DNA from: Minisyncoccota bacterium
GTDB lineage: Bacteria; Patescibacteriota; Minisyncoccia; Phycocordibacterales; GWA1-40-21
DNA: 64,000 nt
Assembly (NCBI GenBank): GCA_041656855.1
Contig: JBBACS010000003.1
Location: 4,902-68,901, forward strand
Direction: 5' to 3'
The notes beneath the pieces were generated by a model. The model was not told where the DNA came from. It ran no database searches and saw nothing but the letters and a program-made list of their open reading frames with translations. Numbering within the stretch: the first letter of the stretch is position 1; every line of letters begins with the position of its first letter. Of this stretch, positions 7,227-52,709 are shown in pieces. The translations under genes were made by a program, and so were the position numbers.

Positions 7227-7443
7227 TGGGTGGCTATCGGGGAGTTTCAGCTTACAGCCGCAGTACACCAAGAATCAGAGGGGGTTGGTCACAGCTTTTT
7301 TCTTCGCCGTCGCTCAGAAAAAGTTGCGAAGCTCTGCACTTGATTTTCTAATTCACTTCGTTCATAACAAAATCTACGCCCGACTCAGCTGATTTTTCTA
7401 CTGAAAAATCAGCTTCCATCTTTCAACCCTCGATAGCCATACC
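7227..7443 (-). ncRNA. tRNA-cognate minihelix-mimic element, His-type copy B (type II + TGTAA modules)
   Basis: On the minus strand, the 5' part tggctatcgagggttgaa is antisense to the tRNA-His 3' end (ttcaacccccgatagcca). The 3' end ctccccgatagccaccca is a verbatim sense copy. It also contains the 14-nt-loop hairpin and the GTAC/TGTAA hairpin. Confidence 0.65.
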
Positions 7444-7452
7444 AAAAATATG

Positions 7453-7577
7453 TATCGGGGAGTTTTTCCTTACAGGAACTGTACACCTTTCGTATCGTAC
7501 TCACTACGTTTCGTGCGATATACTCAAGGTCTTCAACCCCCGAACGTAAGTGCCTACTAGCACTTACTTAGCCGCCC
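7453..7577 (-). ncRNA. tRNA-cognate minihelix-mimic element, His-type copy A (type I)
   Basis: On the minus strand: gggcggcta, hairpin gtaagtgc..gcacttac, tcgggggttgaa (antisense of the tRNA-His T-arm), accttGAgta..tacGAaaggt, gtacag-ttccTGTAAggaa-aaa, then ctccccgata. Confidence 0.65.
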
Positions 7578-7903
7578 AAATGAAAAAGACGGCTTAACGC
7601 CGCTTTTTCATTTGGGTGCATAGGGGGTCTAGAACAATCTACTACCAACAACCACAAAGGTATTTGAGCTATTTTCAGCGTATCAAAAATAGGCGTGTCG
7701 GTCACTATATAAAAAGATCAGAAGTGTTCATTAGTACACTACCCGTCTTATGCTTCCTTTTTTTCAAAAACAGAAGCATTCCATCAATCACCGTAAGAAT
7801 GGTTCAGAGAATTTTGAGTGTTTTTATAAATAAGTTCCAGAATAAATCATGGTCAAACGACGGTCTAGAACTAAAAACACAAATGGCTATAGATCTTTCT
7901 CAA

Positions 7904-8371
7904 CTAGGGATTTATAGCCTGTCTAATTGCGGTCTCAAAATCTCCGGGAACATCCGTTCCTATGCGATAGATTCTTCCGTTTTTCATAATTATTTCAACC
8001 GCATCAAAACCAGAAACATTATATATCCACATCTTGGGCCATAGCCACAACCTTATTCCCCAGCCATAATACCAATGATTCTTCACTTGCTTTACTGATA
8101 CTATTTCACTAAGTAAGAATTTTTTCTTGAAAATTCCATAGCCAAATTTTATCTGAAGACAATTTTTATCAATTGACGTTGTTAGTGTGGTAAACGATGC
8201 AAGAGTAAACGATATTAAAACCATTATGGTGGTAATGAGAAAATTTGTACCAGAATAGTATGAGGGTGTTTCAGTCCTGGCTATAATTTGAGCCCATGCA
8301 AATAACGCCAGCACAATCAGTGTGATAATAATCATCAGATATCCAATTTGAGTGTGTTTATATGAGGTCAT
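7904..8371 (-). CDS. hypothetical membrane protein
   Basis: 155-aa ORF with two N-terminal TM helices followed by a small soluble domain. Confidence 0.6.
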   Translation of the reverse strand: MTSYKHTQIGYLMIIITLIVLALFAWAQIIARTETPSYYSGTNFLITTIMVLISFTLASFTTLTTSIDKNCLQIKFGYGIFKKKFLLSEIVSVKQVKNHWYYGWGIRLWLWPKMWIYNVSGFDAVEIIMKNGRIYRIGTDVPGDFETAIRQAINP

Positions 8372-8452: not shown

Positions 8453-9229
8453 TTATTCGGTAGCAAGCCGAATATGGCCGCATTGGCCATTCAAACTTTC
8501 AACCACCTTCATTACATCATCAATCTGAGGTTCATAAGCGGTAATTTTATCGCCATTTTTAAGTTTAAGAGTTACCAGTTTACTGTGAGTTTGAAATACG
8601 CTTTCCACCTCACAATTATTAATAGCTGTTAAAACTATATTCCAGTTACTATTGGCTTCATCAGTAAAGTTTCGACCGTCGGGAGTAGCACATTGTGACG
8701 GGTTGGATTTCATTATAGAAAAGCCAGCAGTAACACAATCATCAAAATTTCTGATCGTGGCCAATAGTTCGTTGCATCTTTCATGGCTCACCATATCACT
8801 TTTAGGTAGACATTCTTTTAATTTGTCGGTTAATGTAGTGTCTTTCGTGACTAGATTTTCAGCAATACTCCACAAAGAATAATACCGGCTATAGTATCTA
8901 TGGACAGCAACAGCGCTCGTTTTGTCATCTGATTTAAAAAAATAACCTGACCCAATTTGTTCTGTAAAATCATAACCCTTTTCTTTCATGAAAGATTTGA
9001 TTATCTCTAGTTTATCACTTTTTGTAATATACTTATTTTCTCCTATATCTAATTTTACAATGTCTTTATTACCAAAATTTAATTGGGCTATTCCTTTTAT
9101 TTGCGGCCAAGGATTACCTTCCTGAAAGATAGCTGGGAAGTAAAAAAGTATAAAAACACCTAGCAGTAAAATAATAATGGAGGTAATAAGTAGAACATTT
9201 TTATTTTTTAATGAGTGTTCAAAAATCAT
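8453..9229 (-). CDS. hypothetical membrane-anchored/secreted protein
   Basis: 258-aa ORF with a single N-terminal TM (VLLITSIIILLLGVFILFYF). Several Cys residues in the C-terminal half. Confidence 0.6.
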   Translation of the reverse strand: MIFEHSLKNKNVLLITSIIILLLGVFILFYFPAIFQEGNPWPQIKGIAQLNFGNKDIVKLDIGENKYITKSDKLEIIKSFMKEKGYDFTEQIGSGYFFKSDDKTSAVAVHRYYSRYYSLWSIAENLVTKDTTLTDKLKECLPKSDMVSHERCNELLATIRNFDDCVTAGFSIMKSNPSQCATPDGRNFTDEANSNWNIVLTAINNCEVESVFQTHSKLVTLKLKNGDKITAYEPQIDDVMKVVESLNGQCGHIRLATE

Positions 9230-9420: not shown

Positions 9421-9508
9421 TTGTTTGTATTATATCTTAAAAATTCACTTTATTAAAAGACTGATTTTTATAATAAAACAAAAAAGCGACCAAAAGTCGT
9501 TATTTTTG

Positions 9509-9656
9509 TTTACAATTCTTTCGGCATTAGAATCACAGCTTTGTAGCTCTCCCTCGATTCTACGCGATAAAAATGTCCTAGCGGAATAAGTGAGTCTGGG
9601 ACCAAAATTTTATAAAACTAAAGCGAACCGGTCGCAAAACCAGTCGCTCACTCTTG
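9509..9656 (-). ncRNA. rearranged fragment of the mimic-element family directly downstream of tRNA-His
   Basis: On the minus strand it shares tgagcgac...ctttag, ggtcccagac, agcggaataagtga (inverted), gaatcgagggagag and cacagct with type II copies. No closing tRNA-like stem is present. Confidence 0.4.
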
Positions 9657-9728
9657 GGTGGCTATCGGGGGTTGAACCCGAACAAAGAGTTCCACAAACT
9701 CTTGTGCTACCGCTACACCATAGCCACC
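9657..9728 (-). tRNA. tRNA-His (GUG)
   Basis: Cloverleaf read by eye: G-1 plus gtggcta / tagccac acceptor, anticodon arm agagt-ttGTGga-actct, T-arm tcggg-ttcaacc-cccga, discriminator C. No complete encoded CCA. Confidence 0.9.
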
Positions 9729-12351: not shown

Positions 12352-12408
12352 AAATTTATTTTAATAATTTAGCATAGATTTGAGGGAAGTGCTATTTGGA
12401 TAAATGCA

Positions 12409-12523
12409 TGGGATTCTGTCACAGCTCTTTTCTTCGCCGTCGCTCAGAAAAAGTTGCGACCCCGACTCAGCTGATTTTTCTACTGAAAAATCAGCTTCCG
12501 TCTTTCGAATCCCTTAGCACCCA
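12409..12523 (-). ncRNA. tRNA-cognate minihelix-mimic element, Val-type (type II, 3' end truncated)
   Basis: The minus strand begins gggtgctaagggattcgaa, which is antisense to the tRNA-Val 3' end. Then an 11-bp hairpin agctgattttt..aaaaatcagct and the hairpin ctttttc-TGAGCGACGGCGAA-gaaaag. It ends gaatccca. Confidence 0.6.
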
Positions 12524-12577
12524 ATAAAAAATGGCCAAATGCTCCATGTATTCGCATTTGACCTATTTTTTAATCAG

Positions 12578-12651
12578 TGGGCGCTAAGGGATTCGAACCC
12601 CTGACCCCCTCAGTGTAAATGAGGTGCTCTAACCAACTGAGCTAAGCGCCC
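12578..12651 (-). tRNA. tRNA-Val (UAC)
   Basis: gggcgct acceptor, anticodon arm cctca-ttTACac-tgagg, T-arm agggg-ttcgaat-ccctt. Confidence 0.9.
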
Positions 12652-13733: not shown

Positions 13734-13768
13734 ACGCTTTTCCTTTGGGGCCCAACCCAAACTCAAAG

Positions 13769-13901
13769 CCCCCTTGGCAGGAAGTTCGACCGTTACACGG
13801 TCAGTACCCCCATTGGAGATTTTGTTTCGCTACACTCACAAAATCTGCTCAATGGGGCTTCGATTCCTGACGTGAGCAAAGACTTTTGCTCACTCCAAGG
13901 C
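13769..13901 (-). ncRNA. tRNA-cognate minihelix-mimic element, Arg(UCU)-type (type I)
   Basis: On the minus strand: gccttgg, hairpin gtgagcaaa..tttgctcac, tcaggaatcgaa (antisense of the T-arm), ccccattg..caatgggg helix, gtactg-gaccgTGTAAcggtc-gaa, then cttcctgccaaggg. Confidence 0.65.
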
Positions 13902-13945
13902 ACAAAATTAAAATCACCCATTTACTATGGGTGATTTTAATTTTG

Positions 13946-14017
13946 TGCCCTTGGCAGGAATCGAACCTACATCAAAGCCTTAGAAGAGCTCTGTTCTATC
14001 CATTGAACTACAAGGGC
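13946..14017 (-). tRNA. tRNA-Arg (UCU)
   Basis: gcccttg acceptor, D-arm gttc-aatggata-gaac, anticodon loop ctTCTaa, T-arm gtagg-ttcgatt-cctgc. Confidence 0.85.
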
Positions 14018-18063: not shown

Positions 18064-18147
18064 GTTTATTATCTTACTATGTAAATGCGAAATATAAAAG
18101 CCGTTTTTGCTATACAAAAACGGCTTTTATTATAAGTTTGATATGGT

Positions 18148-24393: not shown

Positions 24394-24465
24394 TTGTTAT
24401 TAAATTAACTAATAAATATATTATAAATAATATCACAAAAAATTAAAAAACTTACTTCTTTTATA

Positions 24466-24655
24466 AAAGGGGCGAGATTCGGCTATTACTTAGCCAGGTA
24501 CTTTTCCGCTTCATATTATTAAGAGAGGGCGAGAATTTCGAAACTTACAGTTTCAGTACACCTTTTCTATTTTATATTCGTGATTACACTCTATAAAATT
24601 ATCAAAGGTCTTCGAATCTCGCACGAAAGCTCTCCCAGAGCTTTCTCCTCTGCGC
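24466..24655 (-). ncRNA. tRNA-cognate minihelix-mimic element, Ser-type (type I, with a second partial 3' module)
   Basis: On the minus strand: gcagagg, hairpin gaaagctc-tggg-gagctttc, gcgagattcgaa (antisense of the T-arm), accttt-GA..GA-aaaggt, gtactg-gaaacTGTAAgtttc-gaaa, then ttctcgccctctc. A second gtacctggctaagtaa..gaatctcgcccc module follows. ORFs 24580..25263 and 24591..24773 are spurious. Confidence 0.65.
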
Positions 24656-24692
24656 ATAAAAAATCACGCTGTTTCCAGCGGACTTTTTTATG

Positions 24693-24779
24693 CGGAGAGG
24701 GCGAGATTCGAACTCGCGAGACCCTTGCGAGCCTTTCAGTTTTCAAGACTGACGCTTTCAACCACTCAGCCACCTCTCC
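24693..24779 (-). tRNA. tRNA-Ser (UGA)
   Basis: ggagagg acceptor, anticodon arm tcagt-ctTGAaa-actga, long variable arm, T-arm gcgag-ttcgaat-ctcgc. Confidence 0.9.
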
Positions 24780-26674: not shown

Positions 26675-27046
26675 ATGAGAGACCCAAATTGTATATTTTG
26701 TAAAATTATAAATAAAGAAATTGCTGCTGAAATAGTGTATGAGGATGATAAATTCTTAGCTTTCATGGATAATTTTCCACGTACTGCAGGACACACTCAA
26801 GTAATACCTAAAGACCACTATAGATGGGTTTGGGATGTTCCAAACGCAGGAGAATATTTTGAAGTAGTCAAAAAAATTGCTTTGGCTCAAAAGAAAGCTT
26901 TCGGACAAGATATTATAGAAGGAAAAATTGAAGGTATGGATGTACATCACGCACATTTCTGGGTATTTCCTCACGAAACTCCAAAAGATTGTGATATAAA
27001 AGATTTAAAATGTAACGCGGAAAAAATAAGAAAGGAATTAAAATAA
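26675..27046 (+). CDS. HIT-family (histidine triad) protein
   Basis: CIFCKIINKEI, GHTQVIPKDHY and DVHHAHFWVFP. Confidence 0.85.
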   Translation: MRDPNCIFCKIINKEIAAEIVYEDDKFLAFMDNFPRTAGHTQVIPKDHYRWVWDVPNAGEYFEVVKKIALAQKKAFGQDIIEGKIEGMDVHHAHFWVFPHETPKDCDIKDLKCNAEKIRKELK

Positions 27047-27051
27047 AAAAT

Positions 27052-27087
27052 AAGGGCGGGCTGTTTACGGCCCGCCCTTATTTTTTA
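27052..27087 (+). terminator. intrinsic terminator after the HIT gene
   Basis: agggcggg-ctgtttacgg-cccgccct followed by a T-run. Confidence 0.85.
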
Positions 27088-27190
27088 TTTTATCCCTTGT
27101 ATCAATTCCACAAAATTTTCTACCCCAGTCAAATAAAAATTCAATTTGACGGGGCAAGCCTTCAAACAATTTTATACTATTTATTTTAAA

Positions 27191-28875: not shown

Positions 28876-28947
28876 CCTCTCATCGTTCAATGGATAGGAT
28901 AAACCCTTGCGAAGGGTTTGATGTTGGTTCGATTCCAACTGAGAGGA
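28876..28947 (+). tRNA. tRNA-Arg (GCG)
   Basis: cctctca acceptor, D-arm gttc-aatggata-ggat (with G-U pairs), anticodon arm aaccc-ttGCGaa-gggtt, T-arm gttgg-ttcgatt-ccaac, then tgagagg plus A. Confidence 0.8.
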
Positions 28948-28981
28948 CAAAATGAAATACCCGAAAGGGTTTTTTCGTTTT

Positions 28982-29145
28982 GTCCTCTCAAGCAAGCAAA
29001 CTGCTTTGCTTGCGGGTTTGAATCGAACAGCGGAATGATATTTTTTCAGCAGAAAAATGAATGAGCTGGTGCCCAGACAAATCCGAGTGACGACGAGGAT
29101 TTAGTCGCGGGAGATAAATGTAATCATGTTCCAACTGAGAGGACA
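28982..29145 (+). ncRNA. tRNA-cognate minihelix-mimic element, Arg(GCG)-type (type II)
   Basis: gtcctctca, hairpin gcaagcaaa-ctgc-tttgcttgc, gggtttgaatcgaac, agcggaat, hairpin tttttc-agca-gaaaaa, gaatgagctggtgcccagac, hairpin aaatcc-GAGTGACGACGA-ggattt, agtcgcgggaga, then ttccaactgagaggaca (verbatim tRNA 3' end). Confidence 0.7.
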
Positions 29146-29147
29146 AC

Positions 29148-29173
29148 AAAAAATCCCCTTTCGGGGATTTTTT
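29148..29173. terminator. bidirectional intrinsic terminator (mimic element / rpsT)
   Basis: aaaaaatcccc-tttc-ggggatttttt. Confidence 0.85.
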
Positions 29174-29444
29174 ATTTCTTTGCTTTCGCTTTATTCAAGA
29201 ATAATGTGATTCTTGATTTATATCTTGCAGCTGCATTCTTTTTTATGAATTTAACTTTTGCTGCTTTGTCTATTGCTGTATAAACTTCTGGTAGCATTTT
29301 TTCTGCTTCCTTTATTTTATTTGCTTTTACGAGTTTTTGGATACCTTTTATGGCTTTTTCCATAGCATTGCTTCTGCGTGTATTAAATACCGCTTTCTTT
29401 TTTGCTACTCTTAAGGCTTTCTTTGCTGATGCTATTATAGGCAT
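29172..29444 (-). CDS. rpsT: 30S ribosomal protein S20
   Basis: MPIIASAKKALRVAKKKAVFNTRRSNAMEKAIK... Confidence 0.9.
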   Translation of the reverse strand: MPIIASAKKALRVAKKKAVFNTRRSNAMEKAIKGIQKLVKANKIKEAEKMLPEVYTAIDKAAKVKFIKKNAAARYKSRITLFLNKAKAKK

Positions 29445-30568: not shown

Positions 30569-30756
30569 GAAAAATTTTAAAAGCAGTTGAAGAACTGCTT
30601 TTAAAATACCAGGTTTTCTTTTCGTTATAAGTGTCCGCCACCGCGGACTTCTAAACACAACTCGCTTCACTCAGCTGATTACAGCTTCGCGAATCGATCT
30701 ACGATAATTTAAAAAATAAATAAGAAGGGGGCTCGCTTCGCGAGCCCCCTTCTTAT

Positions 30757-30990
30757 TTATTGTCTCACATAATATACAGTTGCTGGACCTCCATAATTAT
30801 TATTTACATAAACTCTGCGATAAGTAGGCTGTTGATTTACAACTTGAACCTTTGATGGTTTATACTCTGCGACAGCACTTATATTATTTCTTTTTGCCAT
30901 ATCTGCCTTAAAACCACTCCAAAACATAGAGATAAATGCAAATAATAACAAATAACCAAAAAATTTATCAAACTCTTCATTCCAGCCCAT
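30757..30990 (-). CDS. small membrane protein, hypothetical
   Basis: ATG at 30990 (MGWNEEFDKFFGYLLLFAFISMFW...). The track start 31026 is a TTG inside the TIR element. Terminator at 30722-30754. Confidence 0.5.
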   Translation of the reverse strand: MGWNEEFDKFFGYLLLFAFISMFWSGFKADMAKRNNISAVAEYKPSKVQVVNQQPTYRRVYVNNNYGGPATVYYVRQ

Positions 30991-34213: not shown

Positions 34214-34753
34214 ATGGAAAACCCAAATGTTCCAGAAGAAAAAACTTCAACAAATCTTCGCGAGAAAGTACGAGCGGTGCATTCAAGTAATCAGCGCATA
34301 ATAATTACCGTTTCGATCGATCCAAAAGATCTTAAGGAAAAGAAAGAGGTGCTCATTGAACAGTGCCATTTCAATTCCGTATCAAGCAAGATATCTAATG
34401 GATTCGAGGATACGGAGGAAATCGAAGCAAAAGTTGCAAGGATTTTCTATTTTGGAGCAAACACCCTTTCTGAAGCAGAGGTCATCGCGGTAATGAAAGC
34501 TGCTGGATGCATTCCAGGAACGCTAAAGCATTTGCTTGCAGCGATAAAAGCTGGGCTCAAATGCAAGTACATCGTGGTTGCCCTGGGCTCAAGGTATATG
34601 AACGAATATAACCTTAACCCAGCGCTCATTCCTGTAGCCACTGAGGATGCAGGTATCCAGAAAGATCTCCGGCTAGTAACTGAGGAAATGTTTGATGGGC
34701 ATTACGCGCTCATCGGAATAGAGCCAGAAACAAAAAAGGGATTGTGTGATTAA
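34214..34753 (+). CDS. hypothetical protein (orphan, strong SD, G+C-richer)
   Basis: 179 aa. SD aaaGGAGGgaaaaATG. Terminator at 34786-34814. Confidence 0.6.
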   Translation: MENPNVPEEKTSTNLREKVRAVHSSNQRIIITVSIDPKDLKEKKEVLIEQCHFNSVSSKISNGFEDTEEIEAKVARIFYFGANTLSEAEVIAVMKAAGCIPGTLKHLLAAIKAGLKCKYIVVALGSRYMNEYNLNPALIPVATEDAGIQKDLRLVTEEMFDGHYALIGIEPETKKGLCD

Positions 34754-34814
34754 AATCATACAATCCCTTTTATTTTTAAAAACTAAAGGCGAGCTTGTGA
34801 GCTCGCCTGTTTTA

Positions 34815-35988: not shown

Positions 35989-36150
35989 TGTGCGCTTAGT
36001 TGGACACGCTTCGCATTCTCCCTCGACTAAAGCTTCGTCGTCACTCAGCTTTGTCTGGGCACCAGCTCATTCGTCCCGCAAGCTTGCGGGACATTATTCC
36101 GCTGTTCGATTCCAACACACAAGCAAAGCAGTTTGCTTGTTTAAGCCACA
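35989..36150 (-). ncRNA. tRNA-cognate minihelix-mimic element, Lys-type (type II)
   Basis: On the minus strand: tgtggcttaa, hairpin caagcaaa-ctgc-tttgcttg, gttggaatcgaac, agcggaat, hairpin gtcccgca-agc-ttgcgggac, gaatgagctggtgcccagac, hairpin aaagc-TGAGTGACGACGAA-gcttt, agtcgagggaga, then tccaactaagcgcaca (verbatim tRNA-Lys 3' end). ORFs 35990..36178, 36000..36251 and 36153..36365 are spurious. Confidence 0.7.
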
Positions 36151-36169
36151 AATTATTTATAAAAATTTG

Positions 36170-36242
36170 TGCGCTTAGTTGGAATCGAACCAACGACCGT
36201 CTCCTTAAAAGGGAGCTGCTCTACCGACTGAGCTATAAGCGC
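36170..36242 (-). tRNA. tRNA-Lys (UUU)
   Basis: gcgctta acceptor, D-arm gctc-agtcggta-gagc, anticodon loop ctTTTaa, T-arm gttgg-ttcgatt-ccaac. Confidence 0.9.
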
Positions 36243-38263: not shown

Positions 38264-38836
38264 ATGAATTTAATACCAACAGTTATAGAAAAATCACAGT
38301 TTGGTGAAAGAGCATACGACATATATTCACGACTTTTAAAAGAAAGAATAATTTTTATGAGTGGCGAGATTGATGATGACACAACGAATATAGTCATTGC
38401 TCAATTACTATTTTTACAATCTGAAGATCCTAAAAAAGAAATAAAAATATATATTAATTCACCAGGAGGACTCGTTACGGGAACTTTGGCAATAATTGAT
38501 ACGATGAATCATATTAAATGTGATGTTTCTACAGTTTGTATTGGACTTGCGGCTTCAGGCGCAGCATGGCTTCTATCTGCCGGGACAAAAGGTAAAAGAT
38601 ATATACTTCCAAATGCAGAAGTTATGATTCACCAACCACTTGGAGGTGCTCAGGGACAAGTTTCAGATATTGAAATAAGAACAAAACATTTATTAAGAAT
38701 GAGAGATACATTATCAAAGATGATGGCAAAAAATACTAGTCAACCACTCTCAAAAATAGAAAAAGATATTGACCGTGATTTCTATATGTCTGCTGAAGAA
38801 GCTAAAAAGTACGGAATTGTAGACAAAATCCTATAA
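38264..38836 (+). CDS. clpP: ATP-dependent Clp protease proteolytic subunit ClpP
   Basis: [31 protein letters not shown] and MIHQPLGG. Confidence 0.95.
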
Positions 38837-38888
38837 AATAAAAAAAGATGGGTTCGCAAAGCGAACCCGTCTTTTTTTTAATTATATT

Positions 38889-39389
38889 TTAGTTTGCAAT
38901 ATCTACTGCACGAGCAACATGGATATTTTCTGTCTTTGGTCTAAGTCCTTCAGAACCAGTAGCAAAATCTAGTGTCTGTGCGTCATTATCTAAACCTTCA
39001 GAGCTTGACCAGTAAGATTTACCATCAAAACCCTCAACCTTATTAGAATAAGCATATCTTAATTCTTCTATAGTAGGCAATCTTCCACCTTTTTCTTTAC
39101 ACCATCTTTGGGCTTCATTAAAAGACATCTCTTTTGAAGTTTCTGGAGAAAACATTACTTCTATTGCTTCTTGAGATTTTCCTTCTTTCATACGTTCTAT
39201 AATAGAAGCTTCATCTTCTCTTGGTAATCTTATAAAAGAACCTTCTCCTGGCTCTCCTCTTATTTCAGTTTCGGATGCGCTCTTCACAGCCTTTGCCATA
39301 TTAGAAAGTTGAGCATTCTTTTTTGCCTCTTCAGCATTTAGCTGTTCTACTGCTTCATCTAATGATGGAAATCCTTCTGGTGAGTTCAT
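38889..39389 (-). CDS. hypothetical protein with C-terminal DUF1566 (Lcl C-terminal)-like domain
   Basis: MSFNEAQRWCKEKGGRLPTIEELRYAY....YWSSSE. Confidence 0.5.
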   Translation of the reverse strand: MNSPEGFPSLDEAVEQLNAEEAKKNAQLSNMAKAVKSASETEIRGEPGEGSFIRLPREDEASIIERMKEGKSQEAIEVMFSPETSKEMSFNEAQRWCKEKGGRLPTIEELRYAYSNKVEGFDGKSYWSSSEGLDNDAQTLDFATGSEGLRPKTENIHVARAVDIAN

Positions 39390-43958: not shown

Positions 43959-44045
43959 AATTTTATAATAGTTTATTTATAACCAAGTAGCAACTGATTT
44001 TTCTCGCTTATTTTATTTTTTTGTGATAATATCTTTTTGTTATAA

Positions 44046-44116
44046 CGGAGTGTAGTGTAACGGTAGCATTCGTGCTTTGGGAGCATGCGATCCGGGTTCG
44101 AATCCCGGCACTCCGA
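44046..44116 (+). tRNA. tRNA-Pro (UGG)
   Basis: cggagtg acceptor, anticodon arm cgtgc-ttTGGga-gcatg, T-arm ccggg-ttcgaat-cccgg. Confidence 0.9.
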
Positions 44117-44157
44117 CAAAAGAAAATAAGTGGCTTAGGCTGCTTATTTTCTTTTGT

Positions 44158-44290
44158 CGGAGTGAGTAAGCAAACCACTTTGCTTACGTTCGGGATTCGA
44201 AAAGGTTCTCCCATATTTTTGAGCAATTAATATTGCGAGAAAATGGGAAACCTGTACTGCTCCTGTAAGGAGAGAAATTCCCGGCACTCG
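44158..44290 (+). ncRNA. tRNA-cognate minihelix-mimic element, Pro-type (type I)
   Basis: cggagtg, hairpin gtaagcaaa-ccac-tttgcttac, ttcgggattcgaa, aggttctcccat..atgggaaacct helix, ttttt-GA-gcaat..attgc-GA-gaaaa, gtactg-ctccTGTAAggag-agaaa, then ttcccggcactc. ORF 44008..44226 is spurious. Confidence 0.7.
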
Positions 44291-44295
44291 TTCGT

Positions 44296-44329
44296 TTCCA
44301 TAATTTGGGGTGGGACCCAAATTATGGAA
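44296..44329. terminator. bidirectional hairpin terminator (mimic element / cca)
   Basis: ttccataatttggg-gtggga-cccaaattatggaa. Confidence 0.7.
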
Positions 44330-44341
44330 TCTTTCTCTCTA

Positions 44342-45874
44342 TTAAACCTTATGACTCTTTCTAATCTCCTTTAATTCTTCCTCATTTTCTTCCTCTTTCC
44401 TTTCTTTTCCTTCCTCCCCCATTTCTCTCAATTTTTTTTCTGGAAGCTTTATAAGTTCAATAGCTTTTTTATTTAAATATTCTTCTGTATTTCTTTTTGG
44501 ATCATCCAGAACTTCTTCAAGAAGTGCATGTAAAACGAAACCAATTTTGGGTCCAGGAATTTCGCCTGTTACATCCATAATTTTTTTACCATCAATGTTA
44601 AGCATTCCAACAGAAATCGGGTCTCTCATAGCTTCATCAAGCATTGCATGATACTTTCTCAGTCTATATGGATCTTCTTTTGGCCTGCCCATTCCTATTC
44701 TATCGCAAGCTCGCAAATCCATAAGATCCCAGACATTATCTTTTCCAACTCTAGCTACAATTCTTCTAACAGCTGATAAACTGATGAGTTCTGTATCAGC
44801 AAAAAACATATGTACTCTAACGAATTTAGTAACTTTTTCTATAACTTTTGCAGGAAATCTCAAATCTTGTAAAATCTTTTCTGTCATTCTCGCACCAATT
44901 ACTTCATGCCCATAAAAAGTTGGCTTTTTCTCCCCCTCTCTTTTAGATTTAGGCTTCCCTATATCATGCAATAGGGCCGCAAGTCGAACTTCTAATGAAA
45001 GTTTTTTATCAGCAGCGTGTTGCAAAGATTTCAGTGAATGTTCCCATACATCATGTATATGTGCACCGCCTTGTTCTATTCCGATAGTTTTTTCTAATTC
45101 CGGAATAATATATTTTAATAAGCCGAATTTCAGACAAGATTTTAGCCCATGTGCCGGCTCACTAGACATAATTATTTTTGTAAATTCATCACGAATTCTT
45201 TCTTTTGCAATGTTTGAAAGTAAATTTGATTCTTCTGCTAATGCTTTTTCAGTTGCGCTATCAATTTCAAAACCGACATAGTTTCCTATTCTTACAGCAC
45301 GCAATATTCTAAGTCCATCTTCTTGAAATCTTTCATGCGGATTTCCTACAGTTTTTAGAACTTTATTTTTTAAATCTTCCTGACCGGAAAATAGGTCAAC
45401 GATTTGTCCTTTATAAAAATCTTTCTTACTTACCACTAGGTCAGCAGACTTTTCGTGACTTCCCTCATCTTCAATACTCAAAGCAATAGCATTTATCGTG
45501 AAATCTCTCCTCTTTAAATCATCTTCAAGCTTATTACTGAAAGTAACCTTGTCTGGCCTTCTATTGTCAGAATATTCAGATTCAAGCCTATATGGGGTCA
45601 CCTCAATCACTTTGAGTGTTTCATCGGAAACCGTTTCGTTTACTACACCTACAGTTCCATAATTGTTTTCATAAAAAGTATCAGGAAATATCTTTATAAT
45701 TTCTTCTGGTTTAGCATTTGTCGTAAGATCCCAATCTTTAGGTTTCACACCAATCAAAATATCACGAACACAACCCCCTATTAAATAGGCCTCAAATCCA
45801 ACACCTTTAAGTTTTTGTGAAACTTCTAGGACTTCCTTTGGAATTGGACCGTATTCTGTGATAGTTTTTTTCAT
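44342..45874 (-). CDS. cca: CCA tRNA nucleotidyltransferase with HD domain
   Basis: YLIGGCVRDILIG, DWDLTT, RRDFTINA, LRILRAVR and LLHDIGKP. Confidence 0.9.
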   Translation of the reverse strand: MKKTITEYGPIPKEVLEVSQKLKGVGFEAYLIGGCVRDILIGVKPKDWDLTTNAKPEEIIKIFPDTFYENNYGTVGVVNETVSDETLKVIEVTPYRLESEYSDNRRPDKVTFSNKLEDDLKRRDFTINAIALSIEDEGSHEKSADLVVSKKDFYKGQIVDLFSGQEDLKNKVLKTVGNPHERFQEDGLRILRAVRIGNYVGFEIDSATEKALAEESNLLSNIAKERIRDEFTKIIMSSEPAHGLKSCLKFGLLKYIIPELEKTIGIEQGGAHIHDVWEHSLKSLQHAADKKLSLEVRLAALLHDIGKPKSKREGEKKPTFYGHEVIGARMTEKILQDLRFPAKVIEKVTKFVRVHMFFADTELISLSAVRRIVARVGKDNVWDLMDLRACDRIGMGRPKEDPYRLRKYHAMLDEAMRDPISVGMLNIDGKKIMDVTGEIPGPKIGFVLHALLEEVLDDPKRNTEEYLNKKAIELIKLPEKKLREMGEEGKERKEEENEEELKEIRKSHKV

Positions 45875-46510: not shown

Positions 46511-46581
46511 GCGAGCGTGGTTTAATGGTAGAACTAGTCCTTGCCAAGGATTGGGTCCGGGTTCGATTCCCGGCGCTCGCA
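46511..46581 (+). tRNA. tRNA-Gly (GCC)
   Basis: gcgagcg acceptor, anticodon arm agtcc-ttGCCaa-ggatt, T-arm ccggg-ttcgatt-cccgg. Confidence 0.9.
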
Positions 46582-46622
46582 CAAATGAAAAATACTCAGG
46601 ATTCTGAGTATTTTTCATTTGT

Positions 46623-46841
46623 GCGAGCGAGTAAGCAAATCTACTTTGCTTACGTCCGGGAATCGAAAACCTTGAGTATATTTTTGAACTTTTACTAAAG
46701 TGAAAAAATACGAAAGGTGTACCGTCCATGTAATGGAAGATAAGCGAAGCGGTCCCGGCGCATTTACCGTAGTAGATTATATTCGGGATAGGGCCTGAAT
46801 ATAATTTTGTAGAAAGTGTACTCACGGTTCCCGTCGCTAGC
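46623..46841 (+). ncRNA. tRNA-cognate minihelix-mimic element, Gly(GCC)-type (type I, with a second partial 3' module)
   Basis: gcgagcg, hairpin gtaagcaaa-tctac-tttgcttac, tccgggaatcgaa, acctt-GA-gta..tac-GA-aaggt, gtaccg-tccaTGTAAtgga, then ggtcccggcgc. A second gtgtactcacggttcccgtcgc module follows. ORFs 46486..46698 and 46505..46843 are spurious. Confidence 0.7.
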
Positions 46842-47186
46842 ATTTTTTAAAACCGTTTCCATAGGTTTTAAAAAATTTTTGAAATATTTTTTCAAAGACA
46901 CTCCCCTTTTTATTATCAGACACACAACAACATAATTTAGTAAAAAAGGAATAATATCTCAAAAACTAGGCCTTTAAATAAGCTCTTTTTTAGGCAAAAC
47001 TGTGGATAACTATGTTCATATGTTAATTAAAGACAGCTTTTTAAGGTCTGATAGAATTACGACTTTTATAGTCCTATATGCAATAAATGGCTATAAATAT
47101 AGCTAATTATAGAAATACGTCCTTAAAACCCTAAATGTCTAATATAAAGTGTTTCTTAGTAACACTTTATATCAGTTTCATGCCTG

Positions 47187-49902: not shown

Positions 49903-50856
49903 TTAGTTCTTGTTTTTGTTATGAAAATTCTTGTGGATATCTCGTAAATGTTTATCCGTAACATGAGTATATATCTGGGTTGTAGCTATACTTGAATGGC
50001 CTAACATGGCTTGAACACTACGTATATCAGCACCATTTGAAAGCAAATCCGTTGCAAAACAGTGACGAATAACGTGTGGTGTAACTTTTTTGGAAATTCC
50101 TGACATTATTGCATATCTTTTTACTATTCTTTCTATTGACCTGCGAGTGAGTCCTTCATCTTTTGTTTTGTCTTCTTTACCTTTAAGTAAACTTTTTGGA
50201 ATACCCTCATCACTAACTTTTACAAAAAGTGCATCCGACATATCTTTTCTTAAAGCCAAATATGTTTTTATTGCATCCTTAGCTTCCTGCGAAAGAAAAA
50301 CCACGCGAACTTTTCCCCCTTTTCCTCGAATGGAAAATTCATCTTGTTTGATATCCAAATCATTTGTTAGAGAGCAAAGTTCAGAAACACGAAGACCGGT
50401 AGAAAACAAGAGTTCCAAAATAGCGTGTCCACGAGCCACTTTTTCAGGATTTTCCTCCAGATCTGGGGCTTTTAAAAGCCTGTTCAATTCATCTTGTGAA
50501 ATGACATCAATTGATCTTTCACCAACTTTTGCAAGTTCTATTTCATCTGCATGCAGGGAAGTAATGCCACGCTTTGTAAGAAATTTTAAAAAACTTCGCA
50601 GTGCAATCAAATAATAATTTTGTGTTTTCTTTTTCATCGTGTCTTGAGTCGCACGATTATTGCCAGCGACTTGACGATTGAGCCAAATGCGAAAATCCCT
50701 GACTTTTTCATAAGTAATATCTTTTGGGTCAGTAATTTTTGTTTGCTCCAAAAAAACAGTTAAATAGTGATTATAGTTTTCTACAGTACGAAGAGCACGA
50801 CCTCTTTCTATTTCCATATATTCAAGAAATTGTCTTTTTAGATCTTGCAAATTCAT
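49903..50856 (-). CDS. xerC: tyrosine recombinase XerC/XerD family
   Basis: ERGRALRTVENY, GLRVSELCSL, VTPHVIRHCFATDLLSNGADIRSVQAMLGHSSIATTQIYTHV (R..HxxR..Y). Confidence 0.9.
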   Translation of the reverse strand: MNLQDLKRQFLEYMEIERGRALRTVENYNHYLTVFLEQTKITDPKDITYEKVRDFRIWLNRQVAGNNRATQDTMKKKTQNYYLIALRSFLKFLTKRGITSLHADEIELAKVGERSIDVISQDELNRLLKAPDLEENPEKVARGHAILELLFSTGLRVSELCSLTNDLDIKQDEFSIRGKGGKVRVVFLSQEAKDAIKTYLALRKDMSDALFVKVSDEGIPKSLLKGKEDKTKDEGLTRRSIERIVKRYAIMSGISKKVTPHVIRHCFATDLLSNGADIRSVQAMLGHSSIATTQIYTHVTDKHLRDIHKNFHNKNKN

Positions 50857-51409: not shown

Positions 51410-51673
51410 ATGTTAACAAAGACGAAAAAAGCAAAAGTAATAAAGGAAGTTGCAACACATGGCACAGATACTGGTTCTCCAGAGGTTCAAATTGCTATAC
51501 TTTCAAAAAGAATTGAGGAATTAACTAAACATTTAAAGAAAAATGCTAAAGATAATCACTCAAGAAGAGGATTACTCGGAATGGTTGCTGATAGAAGAAA
51601 ACACCTAAAATACTTACAAAAAACTTCACCAAAAAGATACGAAGCTATAATGAAGAAGGTAGAACTTAAATAA
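51410..51673 (+). CDS. rpsO: 30S ribosomal protein S15
   Basis: GTDTGSPEVQIAILSKRIEELTKHLKKNAKDNHSRRGLLGMVADRRKHLKYL. Confidence 0.95.
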   Translation: MLTKTKKAKVIKEVATHGTDTGSPEVQIAILSKRIEELTKHLKKNAKDNHSRRGLLGMVADRRKHLKYLQKTSPKRYEAIMKKVELK

Positions 51674-51719
51674 ACAAAAAATCCCCTTTAGGGGATTTTT
51701 TGTTTATTTAAGTTCTACC
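51658..51719 (+). terminator. 62-nt perfect hairpin (29-bp stem) overlapping the last 5 codons and stop of rpsO
   Basis: ggtagaacttaaataaacaaaaaatcccc-ttta-ggggattttttgtttatttaagttctacc. Confidence 0.85.
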
Positions 51720-51893: not shown

Positions 51894-52418
51894 ATGAGCG
51901 TAATTAAACATAAAGGACAGAGAGTAGGAATTTTTATAGATACACAAAATATTTATCACTCCGCAAAAAATTTGTATGGAGCAAAAGTAAATTTTGGACA
52001 AGTAGTAAAAGATGCACTTGATGGAAGAGTTTTAATAAGAGCAACAGCATACGTTATCACAACAGAATCAGGAGATGAGAAAAATTTCTTTGAAGCATTA
52101 AGTAAAGTGGGTATAACAACCAAAACGAAGAACTTGCAGATTTTTGCAGGTGGCTCAAAAAAAGGGGATTGGGATGTAGCTATGGCCATTGATGCAATTT
52201 CACTTTCACCCAAGCTAGATGCGGTTATTTTGGTAACAGGAGATGGAGATTTCATACCATTAGTTGAATATTTGAAAATAACCCAAGGATGTCAGGTAGA
52301 ATTGGTCTCATTTGGTAAATCAACATCAGGAAAACTAGTAGAAACTGTGGATGATTTTATGGATTTGGACAAAGAACCATATAAATACCTTATTAGGCAA
52401 GGAAATAGAAGGCAATAA
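51894..52418 (+). CDS. NYN-domain (LabA/DUF88-like) putative ribonuclease
   Basis: RVGIFIDTQNIYHSAKN, KGDWDVAMAIDA and VILVTGDGDFIPLVEYL. Confidence 0.8.
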   Translation: MSVIKHKGQRVGIFIDTQNIYHSAKNLYGAKVNFGQVVKDALDGRVLIRATAYVITTESGDEKNFFEALSKVGITTKTKNLQIFAGGSKKGDWDVAMAIDAISLSPKLDAVILVTGDGDFIPLVEYLKITQGCQVELVSFGKSTSGKLVETVDDFMDLDKEPYKYLIRQGNRRQ

Positions 52419-52451
52419 AAAAATGGTGGACTATATTTAGTCCACCATTTT

Positions 52452-52709
52452 TTACTTAATTAAAAGCTTTGTTATTTCCTTCAATTTTCCCTCAGAAACG
52501 GCTAACTCTGAGGTCACCGTGCGCAAATCACTTTCAGCGGTTGTTAATTGTTCATCCAGACTGTCTCTTTGTTTCTCAATATCCAAAAATTCCTCAATCT
52601 TTTCTGGCAGACGATCCTTGCAGATCTGATCACCGCAAGTCACACCATCAATGGACTTGTGCATAACTCCCGAGCCACAAACAACACAAACTGAAAGCCT
52701 GTCTGACAT
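52452..52709 (-). CDS. small zinc-ribbon plus coiled-coil protein, hypothetical
   Basis: 85 aa. CVVCGSG...CGDQIC. SD atAGGAGGtctttaaaATG. It shares a bidirectional terminator (52418-52454) with the NYN gene. Confidence 0.55.
   Translation of the reverse strand: MSDRLSVCVVCGSGVMHKSIDGVTCGDQICKDRLPEKIEEFLDIEKQRDSLDEQLTTAESDLRTVTSELAVSEGKLKEITKLLIK

Follow-up and report, generated by a model that had tools for sequence, protein, structure and literature searches.

Inverted repeats at tRNA 3' ends

Why should the 3' end of a tRNA gene continue, without a break, into a long and perfect inverted repeat? The question is raised by the gene for tRNA-Pro(UGG) (44046 to 44117, plus strand) and by several other tRNA genes in a 64-kb stretch of DNA, hereafter the window, which is part of the chromosome of an ultra-small bacterium, a Candidatus Paceibacterota (Patescibacteria). 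A preliminary description had listed these repeats and proposed that they give the tRNA and a tRNA "mimic" downstream of it a switch-like topology. We found that the repeats are real and that the mechanism behind them is probably, for the most part, the ordinary one of terminator hairpins with templated, outward-extended arms. Less ordinary is what they sit on: structured elements that match the adjoining tRNA and form a widespread family.

All of the listed repeats, including the weaker ones, were recovered at the same coordinates by a repeat search. The tRNA-Pro repeat (44109-44130/44143-44164, plus strand) is complementary at 22 of 22 positions around a 12-nt loop (44131 to 44142). Its first 9 nt are the acceptor 3' strand with A73 and C74, the tRNA ending at 44117, and folding adds ~5 inner pairs, 2 of them G-U. 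At tRNA-Gly(GCC), the repeat (46574-46599/46604-46629, plus strand; 26/26 with a 4-nt loop) is joined by a second perfect 12-nt segment, in which the T loop and the T stem 3' strand (46562-46573) face their complement (46656-46667). Thus, the true arms are 38 nt long, and a 26-nt insert carrying a small hairpin breaks the descending side. The tRNA-Arg(UCU) repeat (13899-13921/13927-13949, minus strand; 23/23) extends into the acceptor strand after a 1-nt deletion (GTGCC-TTGG). The remaining repeats belong to tRNA-Arg(GCG) (28940-28962/28968-28990, plus strand; 87%), tRNA-Ser(UGA) (24647-24671/24676-24700, minus strand; 84%, imperfect), tRNA-Val (20-nt arms at 12504-12523/12578-12597, minus strand; 95%, enclosing an inner hairpin), His-type copy A (7575-7588/7603-7616, minus strand; 14/14), and tRNA-Lys, which has ~8 bp only plus a T-arm segment (36104-36116/36178-36190, minus strand).

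Perfect hairpins are far above chance in the window: 28 have stems of at least 12 bp and 8 have stems of at least 16 bp, versus 0 to 1 stems of at least 12 bp in 20 first-order Markov simulations. The 28 stems lie mostly at gene 3' ends, where overlaps with coding sequences (CDSs) amount to 5 to 20 nt. Five of the 8 longer stems close protein genes, not tRNA genes, and several enter the CDS. The longest, a 29-bp perfect palindromic terminator at rpsO (51658 to 51719, plus strand), has an ascending arm that starts 16 nt inside the CDS (51410 to 51673). Long perfect palindromes of protein genes (16 to 29 bp with that of rpsO included) also lie at 27039-27092, 30715-30761, 34734-34771, 18094-18130, and 52418-52453, and palindromes start 20 nt inside the open reading frame (ORF) 34214-34753 and 8 nt inside ORF 26675-27046.

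The trailer hairpins most likely act as terminators

We designate tRNA positions 54 to 74 as S1 (44097 to 44117, plus strand, in tRNA-Pro), the trailer hairpin as H, the antisense segment as AS, and the downstream direct copy as S2. Within AS, AS(acc) is the complement of tRNA positions 74 to 66 and AS(T) that of positions 65 to 54. Our survey of tRNAs and elements comprised the window and 123 loci, with 155 tRNAs; L001 to L004 are four fetched loci syntenic with the window.

H begins 1 nt past tRNA position 74. In tRNA-Pro (44118 to 44155, plus strand), it consists of an A-tract, a stem-loop, and a T-tract, the shape of an intrinsic terminator. All 22 tRNA-trailer hairpins read C-AAA..AAAAA-[GC stem-loop]-TTTTT..TTTG, with the GC stem between A5-7 and T5-7 in every case; 13 of the 22 are perfect over 16 to 24 bp, and only 7 of 381 pairs are G-T. 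Hairpins of this class are also found at protein-gene stops. The A-tract/T-tract form bears out the earlier suggestion that the stems have the shape of bidirectional terminators. Known Rho-independent bidirectional terminators likewise have a GC stem-loop between an A-tract and a T-tract directly after a gene, and the form also closes convergent protein genes. Here, in contrast, the arms are perfect over 22 to 38 bp and enter at least 9 nt of the tRNA, or 16 nt of the rpsO CDS.

AS(acc) was intact in 29 of 45 elements with H versus 5 of 25 without it (P = 4.5e-4), so that most elements lacking H had no intact AS(acc). This loss fits an insulating role for H. Judged from its sequence, H is most likely a terminator and insulator: most transcripts of a tRNA would stop in the T-tract and not reach AS, which would shield the tRNA from an antisense segment capable of out-competing the acceptor stem.

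Hairpin arms follow changes in the gene that they close

We compared the arms with those of syntenic relatives. The rpsO tails of L003 and L001 differ (GTTGGATTAAAATAA and GTGGAACTAAAATAA, respectively), and each is mirrored by its descending arm. The preliminary description had called for such a comparison between sister genomes at the tRNA loci, and it revealed compensated arm changes at tRNA-Gly(GCC). The window and L001 are 91% identical over this tRNA and its element, and compensated changes affect tRNA pair 6:67, the AS base opposite position 67, one H pair, one small-hairpin pair, and two pairs of the core hairpin P2, while S2 remained decayed. At tRNA-Arg(UCG) of L003, S1-H-AS(acc) is perfect over 21 bp, and AS(T) and S2 are decayed. 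Since the rpsO palindrome tracks coding changes and perfect arms occur genome-wide, perfection as such is no evidence for a tRNA-specific switch. Together, the tracking by the arms, the scarcity of G-T pairs, the tie between intact AS(acc) and H, and the L003 tRNA-Arg(UCG) locus argue for a process centered on the hairpin that keeps and extends arm identity.

Template switching at quasi-palindromes creates and maintains the identity of hairpin arms (PMC7202029, PMC3820800, PMC8794818). We therefore propose that an intrinsic, Rho-independent two-way terminator hairpin stands right after each separately transcribed tRNA gene and that its arms would have been extended outward, unbroken, by hairpin-templated copying during DNA synthesis. 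Such template switching would correct as well as extend arm identity; the extended ascending arm includes tRNA positions 66 to 74, of which the descending arm is the exact complement. Only the downstream arm would be overwritten, the upstream one being held constant by selection on the end of the tRNA or protein. Quasi-palindrome template switching would explain the compensated multibase changes, the outward extension, and the scarcity of G-T pairs; unlike in the cited work, it is deduced here from the pattern, and the conserved small hairpin and S2 stay outside its reach. RNA-level selection for long terminator stems could also contribute. We put the probability that a terminator and insulator with a templated, outward-extended palindrome explains the repeats at roughly 0.55.

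Several observations weigh against this explanation. The evidence for termination at H is the shape of the hairpin, and a simple consensus terminator scan made no call there, because the T-run, lying inside the arm, was counted as paired. The compensated changes could equally reflect selection at the RNA level. We found no element-free palindrome invading the acceptor strand of a tRNA; all such palindromes adjoin an element or a remnant of one. AS(acc) always stops exactly at the acceptor/T-stem junction and is then followed by the conserved small hairpin, a boundary that looks more like a designed, minihelix-like architecture than like passive overwriting. Finally, the explanation leaves aside where a newly placed core would obtain AS(T) and S2.

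The descending arm opens a structured element

The descending arm had been described as recreating the 5' acceptor sequence of the tRNA, the start of the "mimic." In fact, its sequence is exactly complementary to the 3' strand. Where the tRNA stems have a G-U pair or a mismatch, AS agreed with the 3' strand 70 times and with the 5' strand 4 times, which excludes that the "mimic" arose by tandem duplication of the tRNA gene. The reported repeat corresponds to S1(acc)-H-AS(acc), and its descending arm is also the first segment of an element. Behind 7 of the 11 tRNA genes of the window we found the same layout on the tRNA strand: S1, H, AS(acc), one A followed by a small hairpin (consensus GCAAGCAAACUGCUUUGCUUGC), GU and AS(T), a structured core of 60 to 130 nt, and S2. 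The elements are 100 to 200 nt long and contain no ORF. S2 is a direct copy of tRNA positions ~56 to 74, often followed by another terminator.

Behind tRNA-Pro, all on the plus strand, the outer descending arm is AS(acc) (GTCGGAGTG, 44156 to 44164), the exact complement of positions 74 to 66. The small hairpin (GTAAGCAAA-CCAC-TTTGCTTAC, 44166 to 44187) stands at the acceptor/T-stem junction of the antisense copy and is followed by AS(T) (TCGGGATTCGAA, 44190 to 44201), the complement of the T stem 3' strand and T loop. The core (44204 to 44274), of type A, is recognized as structured by covariation, folding, and G-U bias. It contains P2 (44204 to 44252), a long hairpin with a UGAG...CGAGA tandem-GA motif, then GUAC, then hp2 (44257 to 44274), a hairpin with a UGUAA loop. 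S2 (AAATTCCCGGCACTCG, 44275 to 44290) copies the tRNA 3' end with a 1-nt deletion in its acceptor part. Between the element and the converging gene for the CCA-adding enzyme lies a 14-bp perfect hairpin (TTCCATAATTTGGG-GTGGGA-CCCAAATTATGGAA, 44296 to 44329). A hairpin of this type (AATTTGGG-GTGGGA-CCCAAATT) recurs after S2 of several type-A elements, with the loop variants ATAGGG, TTGGG, and TTAGG; its sites are 44296-44329, 46776-46805, and ~13735-13760 in the window and, in L001 and L002, downstream of tRNA-Gly(GCC).

The layout recalls tRNA-like structures and minihelices (the tmRNA domain, viral tRNA-like structures, mascRNA), in that the closing helix corresponds to the acceptor and T stems and a hairpin stands where the D and anticodon arms would leave. 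Unlike those, each element matches the neighboring tRNA, and the helix passes through the discriminator; the T-loop position is occupied by the reverse complement, which is paired with S2, and the core is inserted there. The resemblance suggests another reading, in which the long duplex is a site for RNase III or another double-strand-specific enzyme that separates the tRNA from downstream RNA and in which the tRNA-like closing helix recruits RNase P, RNase Z, or the CCA-adding enzyme. Perfect RNA duplexes of 22 to 38 bp have the size of RNase III substrates, and AS(acc), the hairpin, and AS(T) mimic acceptor/T-stem stacking with the hairpin at the position 7/49 junction. We nevertheless consider a processing signal very unlikely: a cut within the S1:AS duplex would destroy the tRNA, a closing helix that runs through the discriminator and T loop differs from the substrates of RNase P and RNase Z, and AS(acc) and S2(acc) decay freely.

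A segment exactly complementary to a tRNA 3' end also occurs in retroviral and long terminal repeat (LTR) elements, whose primer-binding site comprises 18 nt complementary to the tRNA 3' end. The ~18- to 20-nt segments found here are likewise complementary to a specific tRNA. In contrast to primer-binding sites, the complementarity ends at C74 and includes no complement of CCA, the setting is bacterial, and there is no reverse transcriptase, LTR, or polypurine tract.

The elements form a widespread family matched to tRNAs

A complement of the tRNA's own T loop and T stem was present within 1.2 kb downstream of 74 of the 155 tRNAs, versus 1 of 155 in the upstream control. These tRNAs cover nearly all identities. 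AS mirrors unusual T loops, with ATTTGAA for TTCAAAT, GGTTGAA for TTCAACC, and AATCGGA for TCCGATT. The last case is that of tRNA-Gly(UCC) in L040 (2402 to 2806, minus strand), which has the T loop TCCGATT with C at position 55; the exact complement AATCGGA is present in both tandem elements behind this tRNA. Mismatches to the tRNA amount to 8% in AS(T) (best match) and 15% in S2.

A pattern scan of a genome collection for the small hairpin gave at least 119 loci, with true elements in metagenome-assembled genomes (MAGs) of Paceibacterota/Parcubacteria among the matches listed. We then used a covariance model seeded from 12 short elements, which gave 90 matches across 100 sources. All element helices covary, with 91% of cells paired, versus 65% in shuffles and 35 to 49% in slid controls. 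In the 90 matches, the small hairpin is 99.5% paired, with covariation. For 53 of 58 elements, the tRNA strand gave the better fold of the core (P = 2.6e-10), and G-U outnumbered A-C by 50 to 19 in the core helices. This excess indicates constraint on the core as an RNA, or at the least a single strand, with the polarity of the tRNA.

These asymmetries bear on the idea of a convergent gene, that is, a tRNA-like RNA on the opposite strand that has the same acceptor 3' sequence and uses a two-way terminator in common with the tRNA. Indeed, the opposite strand has a true TTCGAAT/TTCGATT T-loop sequence beside the T-stem 3' strand, and the hairpin is symmetric. Besides the folding asymmetry and the G-U bias, on account of which we rejected such a gene, the tandem-GA and UGUAA motifs are readable on the tRNA strand only, and elements without a hairpin directly abut the tRNA. 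We regard the idea as extremely improbable.

Two contigs from MAGs of high GC content carry elements in Betaproteobacteria. L007 (3286 to 3511), with gltX and an RND pump, has an element that adjoins tRNA-Glu, and L039 (1 to 262), labeled Burkholderiales, has tandem elements in which the encoded CCA is included in S2. These cases may reflect either horizontal spread or a distribution wider than Patescibacteria.

No known family accounted for the elements. A cmscan search of the window and four loci against Rfam (gathering thresholds and E of ≤1) returned only tRNAs and subthreshold chance matches, e.g., SpF41 and L20 leader, which fall on palindromes; those to L20 leader and MicX at 26994-27089 and 38801-38942 lie on palindromic terminators and are most likely artefacts of hairpin shape. 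ARAGORN and the Rfam tRNA model called the 11 true tRNAs and no element. Blastn searches of plasmids and phages gave no match to the elements, and among 78 pattern matches on viral contigs the covariance model confirmed none of the 76 searched (L124 to L199; L200 and L201 were left out). A phage or plasmid origin was therefore rejected. We also rejected a hammerhead or other small ribozyme, as inspection showed no CUGANGA core and Rfam gave no match, and a group I or II intron, for which the elements are too small and Rfam likewise gave no match. No protein gene is linked to the elements, whose neighbors are unrelated housekeeping or hypothetical genes, and our literature searches found no description of tRNA-matched elements. 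The widespread family is thus apparently undescribed, within the scope of Rfam and of the literature searched.

Altogether, S1-H-AS-core-S2 may represent a new class of noncoding structured elements that are templated on tRNA 3' ends, that many Patescibacteria have behind roughly half of their tRNA genes, and that also occur in some Betaproteobacteria. According to this proposal, which we make tentatively, the elements would move between tRNAs by a form of copying that rewrites both arms, and their RNA could force a choice of 3' half (S1 or S2), so that the repeat would be a working joint and not a mere terminator. Copying between tRNAs could proceed, for example, by fold-back of the hairpin and template switching at the conserved, near-palindromic T-loop sequence.

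The predicted pairings only partly fit a switch

The preliminary description had noted mutually exclusive pairings, and these were upheld: the partner of S1 can be either the 5' strand of the tRNA or AS, and that of AS either S1 or S2. We folded alternative structures with nearest-neighbor energies. The whole read-through transcript was predicted to favor the S1:AS helix at the expense of the acceptor stem; holding the native acceptor stem in place cost 11 to 21 kcal/mol in the full unit and 0 to 9 kcal/mol with only AS(acc) transcribed, values that ignore tRNA tertiary structure and modifications. In the predicted read-through fold, S1 pairs with AS; for Arg(UCU), Arg(GCG), and Lys, S2 is also predicted to take up the 5' acceptor strand of the tRNA.

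These folds could serve an RNA switch, in which the transcript would toggle between a cloverleaf followed by an element closed by AS:S2 and an S1:AS hairpin with the tRNA 5' strand paired to S2, with the core as the sensor through which tRNA maturation or decay would be set. In favor of this idea, the alternative pairings do exist, folding predicts the second state as the ground state, the core covaries as RNA on the tRNA strand, and S1:AS complementarity is retained in the sister genome. The other half of the proposal fared less well. In the AS:S2 closing helices, which are paired in 77 to 91% of cells, G-U and A-C were nearly balanced (62 versus 51, no bias), and AS(acc) and S2(acc) drift and decay independently of each other. 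We looked for compensatory AS:S2 evolution away from the tRNA and saw none. Without a G-U bias, the second arm of the switch resembles decaying DNA repeats and not a selected RNA helix, and S2 is often decayed beside an intact tRNA. Nor was a sensor domain or regulated platform evident: downstream genes are unrelated, Rfam gave no match, and the elements have no known ligand or protein partner. Core types are shared by many different tRNAs, a terminator stands between the tRNA and AS, and close relatives differ in whether an orthologous tRNA has an element at all; tandem arrays also occur. Elements that come and go in this way are a poor fit to a housekeeping regulator. A switch is thus possible but quite unlikely.

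Attenuators and T-box leaders offer the closest parallel in topology, with four segments in alternative 1:2, 2:3, and 3:4 pairings, one partner being a tRNA 3' region. They differ in that here the pairing is with the cis tRNA itself, with no regulated downstream gene and no specifier or sensing module; Rfam gave no T-box match in the window.

Elements turn over rapidly and are probably re-templated on the local tRNA

Orthologous tRNAs of L001 to L004 carry elements of differing core types and numbers (up to at least three in tandem) or none. The cores of the Val and His-B elements are ~97% identical (~3 of ~100 nt differ), but each has arms specific to its own tRNA, Val or His. With so little divergence between the cores, re-templating of the arms on the local tRNA must take only a short time. 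We propose that the element is a separate, turnover-prone unit, probably mobile or duplicative, whose arms would be re-templated on whichever tRNA adjoins it upstream and whose RNA would be made via read-through or where the hairpin is absent. Miniature inverted-repeat transposable elements (MITEs) similarly leave near-identical copies at several loci, as seen here for Val/His-B and for the Arg(GCG)/Lys cores (81% identical). Unlike the inverted repeats of MITEs, which all copies share and a transposase recognizes, AS and S2 are inverted repeats that take the local tRNA sequence and differ between copies with ~97% identical cores.

Integrative elements that insert at tRNA genes, as Williams reportedly described in 2002, duplicate the tRNA 3' end as flanking direct repeats (attL/attR). 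Here too, most elements have an S2 copy, and a direct repeat reaching from the T loop past the discriminator borders the inserted DNA; insertions succeed one another in tandem, and presence varies among relatives. The elements differ from such integrants in being only 100 to 200 nt long, with no integrase or ORF; they also contain the target once more in inverted form, and their core covaries and is RNA-like.

The repeats could accordingly be read as a recombination site, in which S1-H-AS, as folded single-stranded DNA or a cruciform, would be an attachment site for element integration at tRNA 3' ends, comparable to integron attC sites or the folded attP of CTX phage. Besides the flanking direct repeats, the tandem arrays, and the fast turnover, this reading draws on perfect Watson-Crick arms with few G-T pairs and on a hairpin bulging from one arm, reminiscent of the extrahelical bases in attC. 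The direct repeat of L007 and L079 extends from C56 to position 74 and on through the whole hairpin (~55 to 57 nt, at most 1 mismatch), and AS(acc) is imperfect there. In addition, ~2 kb with hypothetical genes separate the tRNA from AS-core-S2 in L060 and in the His elements of the window, as cargo would. A search for distant direct copies marking islands returned L060 only. However, no recombinase is linked to the elements, the sole nearby integrase (49903 to 50856) being in conserved synteny in all relatives. Equally perfect palindromes stand at protein genes without any element, the core is under RNA-type constraint, and neither plasmids and phages nor viral contigs (loci searched with the covariance model) gave a match. 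On balance, a recombination site is unlikely.

Two further loci illustrate tandem or interrupted arrangements. L060 has the tRNA-Tyr counterpart of the His arrangement, with ~300-nt noncoding blocks repeated after each cargo ORF. In L080 (1702 to 2120, minus strand), two identical tandem B1-type elements lie behind tRNA-Ser(GCU) with no terminator hairpin, a pair that looks like a recent unequal crossover between S copies.

Related elements seem to stand behind tRNAs with similar T arms. In the window, tRNA-Arg(GCG) and tRNA-Lys have the same T arm, GGTTCGATTCCAAC (28927-28939 and 36178-36190), and related B1 cores. The T stems of tRNA-Pro and tRNA-Gly(GCC) are also in common, and their type-A elements are related.

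Implications

If terminator hairpins copy the end of the preceding tRNA or protein gene and track its evolution, these loci would be a very clean natural case, one that bears on the origin and upkeep of long perfect RNA stems. If the elements are mobile, target-templated arms and T-loop junctions would constitute a new and harmless route by which selfish DNA or RNA homes to essential genes. If they are functional, they would add an extra layer to tRNA biogenesis in bacteria with minimal genomes. In practical terms, palindromes flanking tRNAs and partial tRNA copies can mislead gene callers, island finders, and assemblers in Patescibacteria.

Other units and setting of the window

The unit of tRNA-Gly(GCC) (46511 to 46876, plus strand) comprises the tRNA (46511 to 46582), H (46583 to 46620), AS(acc) (46621 to 46629), the small hairpin (46631 to 46653), AS(T) (46656 to 46667), P2 (46669 to 46718), hp2 (46722 to 46739), and two S2 copies, S2a (46751 to 46761) and S2b (46826 to 46842), with a hairpin (46776 to 46805) between them and a terminator (46842 to 46876) at the end. 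On the minus strand, the tRNA-Arg(UCU) unit (13768 to 14017) consists of the tRNA (13945 to 14017), H (13904 to 13944), AS(acc) (13895 to 13903), the small hairpin (13872 to 13893), AS(T) (13859 to 13870), and S2 (13771 to 13784). The tRNA-Ser(UGA) unit (24463 to 24779, minus strand; tRNA at 24692 to 24779) has a type-A element. Type-B1 elements with a perfect S2 are found in the units of tRNA-Arg(GCG) (28876 to 29176, plus strand; tRNA at 28876 to 28948, terminator at 29145 to 29176) and tRNA-Lys (35990 to 36242, minus strand; tRNA at 36169 to 36242). The tRNA-Val unit (12380 to 12651, minus strand; tRNA at 12577 to 12651) has a type-B2 core, a truncated S2, and a contiguous antisense copy of 20 nt (12504 to 12523).

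Two tandem His-type elements, type A and then type B2, occupy 7230 to 7620 on the minus strand, 2 kb away from tRNA-His (9656 to 9727), and are preceded by a decayed tRNA-His 3' fragment with its hairpin (7575 to 7616). The hypothetical ORFs 7904-8371 and 8453-9229 lie between these elements and tRNA-His. Directly after tRNA-His (9440 to 9655, minus strand), we observed a degenerate B1-like remnant (GGTCCCAGAC...TCGAGGGAGAGC) and a terminator; the remnant has no recognizable antisense copy.

The window has a G+C content of ~32%, and its 11 tRNA genes (ARAGORN and Rfam) are scattered and have no encoded CCA; tRNA-Pro itself was called by ARAGORN and scored 61.8 bits with the Rfam tRNA model. 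The protein genes include ordinary bacterial housekeeping functions (RecJ, PNPase, RNase Y, UvrD, and the CCA-adding enzyme). The CCA-adding enzyme (44342 to 45874, minus strand) has an identical counterpart, a protein named from Candidatus Paceibacterota, and many relatives, 65 to 91% identical, in Patescibacteria. The unit comprising the promoter, tRNA-Pro, and its element (43960 to 44340) is inverted in the window relative to L001 to L004, where tRNA-Pro is codirectional with the gene for the CCA-adding enzyme. The orientation of tRNA-Gly(UCC) is also opposite between the window and the four syntenic relatives.

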